This document shows positions 19,482 through 20,946 of a DNA stretch of 43,647 nt, one piece after another. The translations under genes were made by a program, and so were the position numbers. Numbering within the stretch: the stretch's first letter is position 1; each line of letters begins with the position of its first letter. The DNA lies in the IMG/VR virus record IMGVR_UViG_3300045808_000015. One strand, 5' to 3'. The notes beneath the pieces were generated by a model. The model was not told the origin of the DNA. It saw only the letters and a list, made by a program, of their open reading frames with translations, and did not search any database. The DNA comes from a virus.

Positions 19482-19706
19482 ATGAGCACGACAGAGGCTG
19501 TTTTTCGAATCATTTTGTTTATCGTTACATGGCGTATAGTCGCTTCTATATTCAAATCGTACAATAAAGCAATTAATGAACTGAATAAACGAATGAAAAC
19601 GTTGGAGACACAAAAAGATCTCTACATTGAATTCATTATGAAATTGAATGAAATTTTGAATAAAAGTGATAGCAAAGATACAGAACAACGGGGGAAGAAT
19701 GATTGA
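19482..19706 (+). CDS. Small membrane/coiled-coil protein
   Basis: RBS aggagggg. N-terminal hydrophobic helix. Confidence 0.55.
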   Translation: MSTTEAVFRIILFIVTWRIVASIFKSYNKAINELNKRMKTLETQKDLYIEFIMKLNEILNKSDSKDTEQRGKND

Positions 19707-20116
19707 GTAGAAATGATTATCTCATAAACGAATTAGACAGGAAGTTTGCGAATTATCCGAATTACAATAGAGAAATCGCGATTCGAAAAGAAGAACTAAA
19801 AATGAAAGAGGCTGATGAGAACATCGGCGGCGGTAAAGGGAACATTCGTAGCAATCCTGTTGAACAGCAAGTAATTAAAGAGTTATCTGATCCGTATATT
19901 GTCAATCGGCAGCTTTGGAAGAAGTGTATCAGGGAGACTTTAGAAAGTCAGAGCGCTGATATTAGAAAACTGATGGAGCTTAAATACTGGGGTGAAGATA
20001 GTTGGATGGATTGGGTAAGTTTTGGTCAAAAACATGGATATGCTCAAAAGACTATTTATCGATTGCGGCAGAAAATTTTACTTGATTTTGGAAGACGAAT
20101 TGGGGAAATCAATTAA
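19703..20116 (+). CDS. rinA: RinA/ArpU-family late-gene transcriptional activator
   Basis: ADENIGGGKGNIRSNPVE matches the RinA-family DENIGGGKSN motif. Position is immediately upstream of the packaging region. Confidence 0.75.
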   Translation: MSRNDYLINELDRKFANYPNYNREIAIRKEELKMKEADENIGGGKGNIRSNPVEQQVIKELSDPYIVNRQLWKKCIRETLESQSADIRKLMELKYWGEDSWMDWVSFGQKHGYAQKTIYRLRQKILLDFGRRIGEIN

Positions 20117-20603
20117 AATGACACAAAAGTGGGTAGTTTTGTCACTGTCAACCCCTATATAATTGTATTATCAGAGAGTTTTAAATAATCCATCAAACAG
20201 ACGACTCAAATTAACTTTATTGGCATGAAGTTTCTTCTTATACCTCTTAACATACAAACGTCTAGCTTGGTGGGTTATTCTCTTTTTGACTACACTGCCA
20301 CTTTGCGGAAACAGAGTAGGCAAACAATTGACGGCATGAAATAATGATTTCTACATTGAGCATGCCGTCTTTATGTCACTGTGGCGGAAGTAGAAGACGT
20401 GTTGCATGCGTGCGAGGTTAATGCTTAGGCAACCATGAGTGGGGCGGTGCCACTCCAGTGACTTAGACGAAAGGTAACTTAAATGTGACCACATCAGTAT
20501 CGTCAGCGAGCTGATAAAGGTAACTAGTAGACTCTAGGATTTAAGATAGTCTTGCCGATTAGTCAATCTCAACAGCAAGCTTGCAGGAGGTAGCTCCTCC
20601 AGT

Positions 20604-20678
20604 TGACGTGTAGCATCATGGTGATGCATCTGACTGTCAGAGTTGGAAATGAGGTCGGTTCGATCCCGGCCACGTCAA
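20604..20678 (+). ncRNA. tRNA-like element lacking a functional anticodon loop
   Basis: Acceptor tgacgtg/cacgtca. D arm gcat-catggtg-atgc. T arm gtcgg-TTCGATC-ccggc. The anticodon position is a 5-bp stem tctga/tcaga with a 3-nt loop. Confidence 0.55.
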
Positions 20679-20917
20679 TAGGGACGAAGGTGCCCAAGAA
20701 ACATCGGGACATAAGCGCCCACAAATAGCAACCGAGCATTCCTATCTGCCAGTCATGGATAAACAGTGGGTTCCATAATGGAGTAGGTTGCTTAATTTAA
20801 TGTCAATACTCTCATTCCTGTTTAGGCAGATGCGTTCTGAGGTGAGAGTTTTAATTATTAATAGAACCCCGTACACCTCTCAACGATGTGTCCCAAGCGG
20901 GGACGATATACATAATC

Positions 20918-20946
20918 AAGATCGCTTAGGCGGTCTTTTTATTTTG
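20918..20946 (+). terminator. Intrinsic terminator at the end of the non-coding region
   Basis: Stem gatcgc/gcggtc (one G-U pair), loop ttag, followed by tttttatttt. Confidence 0.65.

Follow-up and report, generated by a model that had tools for sequence, protein, structure and literature searches.

A tRNA-shaped element of tRNA-Lys ancestry as a candidate RNA cleavage site in the late leader of an ArpU-type Enterococcus phage

The window analyzed here, i.e., the whole 43,647-nucleotide stretch of IMG/VR record IMGVR_UViG_3300045808_000015, represents a temperate phage of the siphovirus type, with an Enterococcus-like host and a G+C content of ca. 38%. An ORF-poor gap of ca. 1.1 kb (20117 to ca. 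21050) is situated between a late activator gene of the arpU/rinA type on its 5′ side and small late ORFs, an HNH gene, and the terminase genes on its 3′ side, and contains a non-coding array with a tRNA-shaped element (Table 1). The late activator function of the ArpU homolog has been shown in phage phiFL2A (PMC3753634). Ca. 70 related loci were gathered via pattern scans and ArpU-seeded searches of IMG/VR, metagenomes, genomes of Enterococcus hailinensis and other Enterococcaceae, and isolated phages; the pattern scan of the genome contigs yielded one match, and the phage collection few close relatives. In these relatives, the array occupies a gene-free leader with arpU on one side and the packaging genes on the other.

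Table 1. Features of the non-coding array and the adjacent activator gene (positions in the window).
Feature	Position	Strand	Remarks
arpU/rinA-type late activator gene	19703..20116	+	Upstream of the array in all loci
Putative ArpU-dependent late promoter	20130..20165	+	Directly 3′ of the arpU stop; by analogy with phiFL2A
Conserved leader segment	20182..20323	+	BLAST; common to most arpU-linked loci
9-bp stem (20330-38 with 20361-69)	20330..20369	+	Just 5′ of tRNA-like 1; read from the sequence
tRNA-like 1	20375..20463	+	Acceptor 20375-81/20456-62; D region, filling, T-arm analogue
140-nt spacer between the two tRNA-shaped modules	20464..20603	+	Alignments, nhmmer; candidate excised small RNA
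Hairpin (5-bp stem, 5-nt loop)	20586..20600	+	3 nt before the tRNA-shaped module; before slot 2 in nearly all relatives
tRNA-shaped module ("slot 2", type X)	20604..20678	+	ARAGORN, Rfam tRNA, folds, covariation in 17 homologs
Trailer after the tRNA-shaped module	20679..20725	+	Starts T-A-G-G, as after the discriminator in phiFL2A
Module B, small conserved folded unit	20726..20801	+	Also in Aerococcus phage AVP
Module C, conserved hairpin unit	20861..20914	+	Before the terminator
Intrinsic terminator closing the non-coding array	20918..20945	+	Conserved in relatives

The sequence 3′ of arpU followed a common order (i.e., leader segment, stem, tRNA-like 1, spacer, hairpin, slot 2, small modules, terminator) of which the modules were combined differently from locus to locus, slot 2 being missing from some related leaders. 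A putative –10 hexamer of the candidate promoter was located at 20158-20163. The conserved leader segment was also found in one locus carrying ROOL in place of the tRNA-like array, and the stem that follows it was kept in relatives with changed letters, as judged by inspection and without statistics. In tRNA-like 1, a D region resembling that of class II tRNA-Leu is followed by an inserted filling that varied among loci and by a T-arm analogue (20437-55) with a loop that is non-canonical in this phage. Its acceptor covaried in comparison with phage EH-TP1, its T stem showed a compensatory change in locus L024, and its versions in relatives scored up to 29-38 bits with the Rfam tRNA model. Its 3′ motif occurred in 13/134 Enterococcaceae genomes, and tRNA-like 1 was present in the tRNA arrays of Schiekvirus (virulent phages) as well. 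A tmRNA or Y-RNA identity of this module was not supported by ARAGORN or Rfam searches.

The 140-nt spacer was near-invariant in about a dozen loci and elsewhere replaced by unrelated spacers of 77-110 nt. Being one of at least five spacer versions, it was rejected as a universal core; it was also rejected as a specially stable fold (z = –0.8, with an MFE no better than that of shuffles), and it had no match in Rfam. The stem of the hairpin at its 3′ end covaried in locus L047 and in phiFL2A. An 11-nt string of this hairpin also occurs, maybe by chance, in a hairpin inside the ROOL of Aerococcus phage AVP (L004:3370-3390). Further downstream, the stretch 20699-20725 was common to the window and phage EH-TP1, and module B was also encountered inside the tRNA array of phage AVP, where it adjoins a bona fide ROOL RNA.

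The preliminary description of this DNA had placed the tRNA-shaped element in a surrounding large RNA. Instead, the region looks like a chain of exchangeable modules rather than one giant ornate RNA. No match to GOLLD, ROOL, or any other Rfam family was obtained for the surrounding region in either gathering or lax mode, and the GOLLD and ROOL covariance models gave no match at E-values up to 10 on 1.2 kb. The same search method found ROOL at 254.7 bits in phage AVP. Where the window has the tRNA-like array, a sister phage (99% ArpU identity) has a ROOL-like RNA (L027:862-1389; nhmmer E-value of 6e-15 vs. the Rfam-verified ROOL of phage AVP) that is flanked by the same conserved leader and terminator. 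The literature searched contained no description of the non-coding array of Table 1.

Odd tRNA-like sequences were also seen elsewhere. Near the left end of the window, a second odd tRNA (334-405) received a 2-nt "anticodon" from ARAGORN and 40.2 bits from the Rfam tRNA model; in its MFE fold, a 6-bp anticodon stem closes a loop of 4 nt, and it had no match in the phage collection. In Enterococcus phage 113 (L058, 744-1900), a homing-endonuclease gene separates a tmRNA gene (126.7 bits) from a second tmRNA 3′ end, and tRNA-like 1 is situated directly after the latter. Finally, two aberrant tRNA calls (1012-1082 and 2687-2775; one with a 4-nt "anticodon" and one weak and Leu/Sec-like) were made in the array next to the ROOL of phage AVP (L004), with module B between them.

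With regard to the tRNA-shaped element itself, the acceptor, D, and T arms were all found where the preliminary description had placed them. The 7-bp acceptor stem (20604-20610 with 20671-20677) and the T stem (20654-20658 with 20666-20670, including one G-U pair) form a stack of 12 bp, the T arm (20654-70) carries a canonical 7-nt loop (20659-20665), and the D arm (20613-27) consists of a stem (20613-20616 with 20624-20627) and a 7-nt loop with GG inside. The discriminator is A20678, and the aberrant anticodon region spans 20629-20653. U8, G18, G19, the T-loop bases, and G53-C61 are kept and A14 and A21 are replaced; the tRNA elbow formed by G18-G19 and the T loop is intact. The Rfam tRNA model (RF00005) matched the element at 37.3 bits (vs. 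a gathering score of 29; E-value of 6e-6 in the 1.2-kb gap), a match that is missed by the default gathering-mode filters and recovered in a relaxed search. Given this E-value and its recurrence in relatives, the element is more than a chance resemblance. Although a pseudogene call or no call had been anticipated from ARAGORN, this program called 20603-20679 as a tRNA-SeC with anticodon tca, in a shifted register with a 7-nt loop. The tRNA-Sec identity itself, which would call for an 8/5 acceptor/T design, a D stem of 6 bp, and a long variable arm, was rejected, as no RF01852 match was present in the window and the variable region measures 5-7 nt. Positions 20603 and 20678 could form an eighth acceptor pair, but so could their counterparts in the lysine versions discussed below.

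Slot 2 was surveyed in about 25 related Enterococcus phage loci, and was found to hold either a normal tRNA-Lys(UUU) or tRNA-shaped relics with a shortened, broken, or absent anticodon arm. Nine distinct canonical tRNA-Lys(UUU) sequences (58-75 bits) were recovered next to ca. 15 distinct aberrant versions, among which the element's own type comprises five variants (32-38 bits). Other aberrant versions had 5- or 6-nt anticodon loops, a changed T loop together with a poor D arm, a broken anticodon stem (phiFL2A), or, in two types, no anticodon arm at all. The acceptor sequence was near-invariant across the slot-2 types, beyond what pairing requires. One of the canonical versions (L062, 58 bits) has a D loop of the same kind as that of the element, and carries the D arm of the element's type and its exact 5-bp stem around a normal 7-nt loop. 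The element is therefore the descendant of a phage tRNA-Lys gene.

An alignment of 17 distinct slot-2 sequences indicated selection on the upper half of the fold. In the acceptor, D, and T stems, 96% of the cells were paired, with compensatory (both-side) changes in 9/16 pairs and 27 cells changed on both sides. Observed pairing and compensation were reached by none of 500 shuffles, and slid controls gave 30-49%. The acceptor stem was entirely rewritten yet paired in L047 and also fully compensated in phiFL2A, while within the element's own type all four stem substitutions were G-U compatible. The arms are thus conserved in homologs, as the preliminary description required of a functional element, whereas the anticodon region has been rebuilt, broken, or deleted. 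The lower half has thus escaped a constraint that still acts on the upper half.

As for the anticodon region, the 5-bp stem proposed in the preliminary description (20629-20633/20637-20641, closed by 3 nt and followed by a 12-nt stretch) exists in the sequence and corresponds to the Infernal alignment to the Rfam tRNA model, in which four loop positions are deleted and nine are inserted in the variable region. However, it constitutes a minor fold with a pair probability of ca. 4% in ViennaRNA vs. ca. 95% for a shifted stem (20630-20634/20642-20646) that extends to 7 bp with a 5-nt loop. Constrained cloverleaf energies were –20.4 kcal/mol with the former stem vs. –22.9 kcal/mol with the shifted one. 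When opened to 7 nt, the shifted loop exposes the anticodon UCA with G33 instead of U33, and since its positions 32 and 38 are able to pair, the loop closes to 5 nt. A canonical anticodon arm (i.e., a 5-bp stem and a 7-nt loop with U33 and a purine at position 37) was not found in the element. Covariation does not choose between the two folds, as the sole variable position fits both, and MAFFT produced a third homology register for the region. As the 3-nt loop belongs to the minor fold, the earlier statement that the element cannot decode is likely rather than certain; decoding has very probably been lost.

The shifted register nevertheless raises the question whether the element could be a working suppressor tRNA that reads UGA, or UAA in sister phages. 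The decoding-like register is the thermodynamically favored one, ARAGORN reported tca here and tta in the sister loci L013, L020, and L053, and the acceptor stem and discriminator match those of the neighboring tRNA-Lys versions; moreover, a lysine tRNA carrying a UUA anticodon is a classical ochre suppressor. Such a function seems very improbable to us, however, with the near-universal U33 replaced by G33 and the 32-38 pairing shrinking the loop, with A14 and A21 missing, and with bit scores well below those of the lysine versions. In the other fold, the C/T difference between tca and tta replaces a G-C pair by G-U and is neutral, and the other occupants of the slot are clearly unable to decode. 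The ORFs were intact under table 11 (the standard code) and used all three stop codons (TAA 21, TAG 16, and TGA 7 times among the 44 plus-strand ORFs located from 7900 onward and at least 80 codons long); TGA or TAA recoding was accordingly rejected, and the phage has no need for a suppressor. Another explanation, i.e., a functionless tRNA pseudogene drifting to loss, fits the ancestry in a tRNA-Lys gene, the loss of A14 and A21, the low Rfam score, and the absence of the slot from some related leaders. Stem substitutions regardless of pairing, as expected of a neutral pseudogene, were not what was seen, with the damage confined to the anticodon region and the three stems staying paired via compensatory and G-U changes. 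The element's type was also kept in five phages amid different spacers and different downstream modules, and several independent lineages lack the anticodon arm and have kept the acceptor and T arms. We therefore regard a drifting pseudogene as improbable, and the preliminary view that this is not a decaying tRNA gene holds in so far as the stems are under selection, although the element does derive from a real tRNA-Lys gene and is thus an exapted relic.

Wherever the acceptor register was assignable, the slot-2 sequence was preceded by a U at –1 (16/21 rows); CCA was encoded at no locus, and a U followed the discriminator in most loci. Together with the 12-bp acceptor-T stack, these features resemble those that characterize substrates of RNase P as well as CCA-less substrates of RNase Z.

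An RNA end close to a homologous element is available from phiFL2A (locus L057). In this phage, ArpU binds three 7-nt repeats immediately 3′ of arpU that are required for terS expression, and the single 5′ RACE end of the terS cDNA, i.e., a G that precedes the ATG by 118 bp, was published as the transcription start (PMC3753634). With the terS ATG at 1845 of this locus, the published end corresponds to G1727, which is 3 nt beyond the discriminator (A1724) of the homologous tRNA-like element (1652-1724) and ca. 610 nt downstream of the ArpU repeats (1053-1081) and the gap's only promoter-like site, which follows them and has an extended –10 (1053-1111). The chance of a random position falling within 3 nt of the boundary is ca. 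1% in the 795-nt gap. Since the RACE employed a dA-tailing kit and an anchored oligo-dT primer (PMC3753634), the 3-nt offset could vanish if a T and the next base at the true end were absorbed into this primer. The procedure does not discriminate 5′ phosphates, and a processed end, a true start, and a reverse transcriptase stop at the base of the acceptor helix are all possible. Furthermore, terminators in the phiFL2A gap block read-through from a foreign promoter (PMC3753634), so that a promoter next to arpU would require read-through past them.

Of the RNA ends that the preliminary description expected at both borders of the element, the phiFL2A homolog thus provides one 5′ end near the 3′ border. 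Together with the conserved arms, this end supports the earlier reading of the element as a processing signal, and neither of the two outcomes named there as refuting was encountered. With its placement between the late promoter region and the terminator, the element resembles t-elements and mascRNA in being a conserved and very probably non-decoding tRNA fold within what should be a longer transcript. By homology, the downstream RNA is predicted to start at about 20679-20681 in this phage.

Public expression material consisted of Logan contigs of ant metatranscriptomes, which span the whole phage with a 3-5 fold extra depth over 20342-20675. The ant metatranscriptome and metagenome samples contained the window phage together with a sister phage that differs by a T at 20638, by one T inserted after 20618, and by a spacer of lesser length. 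The depth excess, the "joints", and the C>T change at 20638 were dismissed as signals of the window phage, as they stem from sister phages in the same samples, and for the same reason the contigs are uninformative on RNA ends or levels.

Our favored interpretation, to which we grant about an even chance, is that the top half of a tRNA has been exapted as an RNase P/RNase Z cut site in a modular late-leader RNA. An untranslated leader of ca. 0.8 kb would be transcribed from the ArpU-dependent late promoter adjoining arpU and would consist of exchangeable modules, i.e., tRNA-like 1, the spacer, the hairpin, the element, modules B and C, and the terminator. The former tRNA-Lys would be kept for its upper half (the acceptor-T stack and the D/T elbow), which host tRNA-maturation enzymes may recognize. 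RNase P would then cut on the 5′ side, at about 20603/20604, and an RNase Z-type enzyme after the discriminator, at about 20678/20679, and the two cuts would jointly release the spacer RNA on the upstream side and define where the downstream RNA begins. That the phiFL2A end originates from cleavage, that these are the enzymes responsible, and that the same events take place in this phage, we infer. Against a cut site stand the offset of the phiFL2A end (3 nt rather than 0 nt past the discriminator), the read-through that a promoter next to arpU would require, the optional nature of slot 2, which is absent from several related leaders, and the 140-nt spacer without special predicted stability. 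More tentatively, and with somewhat less confidence than an even chance, the late leader of ArpU-type Enterococcus phages in general might be a tRNA-punctuated string of non-coding RNAs, in which relic tRNAs reduced to their upper half act as portable RNase P/RNase Z cut sites that release cargo and create the mature 5′ end of the packaging mRNA. Such a leader would be a bacterial-virus counterpart of mitochondrial tRNA punctuation. The interchangeable cargo RNAs would be the spacer RNA, modules B and C, or, in sister phages, ROOL, and the published terS "start site" of phiFL2A would be a processing site.

The main rival to a cut site is that the element is a tRNA mimic or structural module with a job other than cleavage, which we judge rather unlikely. 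A mimic might bind or divert a reader of the upper half, such as a tRNA-targeting defense nuclease, the CCA-adding enzyme, EF-Tu, or a synthetase, and would equally predict conservation of the upper half. The near-invariant acceptor sequence, which exceeds pairing needs, also speaks for this reading. The ancestral cargo of the slot was tRNA-Lys(UUU), and tRNA-Lys is the target that PARIS cleaves and for which phage T5 supplies a variant as a replacement (PMC11464382), while phage tRNAs have been proposed as anti-nuclease spares (PMC10264068). Nevertheless, a nuclease that reads the anticodon loop would miss the loop-less versions, and the binding partner is only hypothetical. Alternatively, the element might serve as one unit of a higher-order RNA, much as GOLLD linkers sometimes hold covalently linked tRNAs; the ROOL-like RNA that fills the same slot in the sister phage with the 99% identical ArpU fits this possibility. 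However, a mimic or building block leaves the RNA end at the phiFL2A boundary unexplained, and is compatible with processing rather than exclusive of it.

Cleavage of the leader at a tRNA fold would have parallels in other systems. The mascRNA of MALAT1 and the tRNA-like parts of the gammaherpesvirus 68 TMERs are non-decoding tRNA folds within longer transcripts, with the ends of the neighboring RNAs at their borders. The t-elements of plant mitochondria likewise combine a non-decoding tRNA fold in a longer transcript with ends of the neighboring RNA at its borders (PMC1920247). All three are recognized via the acceptor-T half; they are, however, of eukaryotic, organellar, or animal-virus origin, whereas the element is situated in a phage late-operon leader, demonstrably derives from a phage tRNA-Lys, and its cleavage is only proposed. 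Among tRNA operons, the tRNA cluster of phage T4 contains two stable RNAs, and the 3′ external spacer of Escherichia coli leuZ gives rise to small RNAs. These are non-tRNA RNAs co-transcribed with tRNAs and freed by tRNA-processing nucleases, as is proposed here, but the flanking tRNAs are functional decoders in those cases and relics in this one, where the unit is an mRNA operon leader. In tmRNA and in the bacterial Y RNA YrlA, tRNA mimicry is confined to the acceptor, T, and D parts and an anticodon arm is missing, which also holds for the arm-less slot variants and tRNA-like 1; unlike these RNAs, the phage modules lack a tag reading frame, G3-U70, a Ro-binding stem, and an Rfam match of this kind. 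GOLLD and ROOL are likewise phage-borne, non-coding, and close to tRNA islands (Rfam; bioRxiv 10.1101/2024.12.08.627333; PMC5737381), whereas the present region is a mosaic of small exchangeable units instead of one conserved large fold. A further comparison is that with the canonical tRNA-Lys(UUU) of the slot itself (EH-TP1 L001:3151-3223, L062, L067, L034), which shares the preceding hairpin, the acceptor, the discriminator, and the T-arm design (and, in L062, the D arm and 5-bp stem as well), but which has the 7-nt loop with U33 that the element has lost, a shorter variable region, and higher Rfam scores (58-75 bits vs. 37 bits).

If the cut-site interpretation is true, the element would clearly exemplify, for bacteria and their viruses, how tRNA genes can be kept solely as cleavage handles. 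It would explain the recurring phage "tRNAs" with impossible anticodon loops that confuse annotation, and would revise the late transcription start in a well-studied Enterococcus transducing phage. It would also offer a concrete route for the expression and release of ROOL and other enigmatic phage RNAs found in the same slot.
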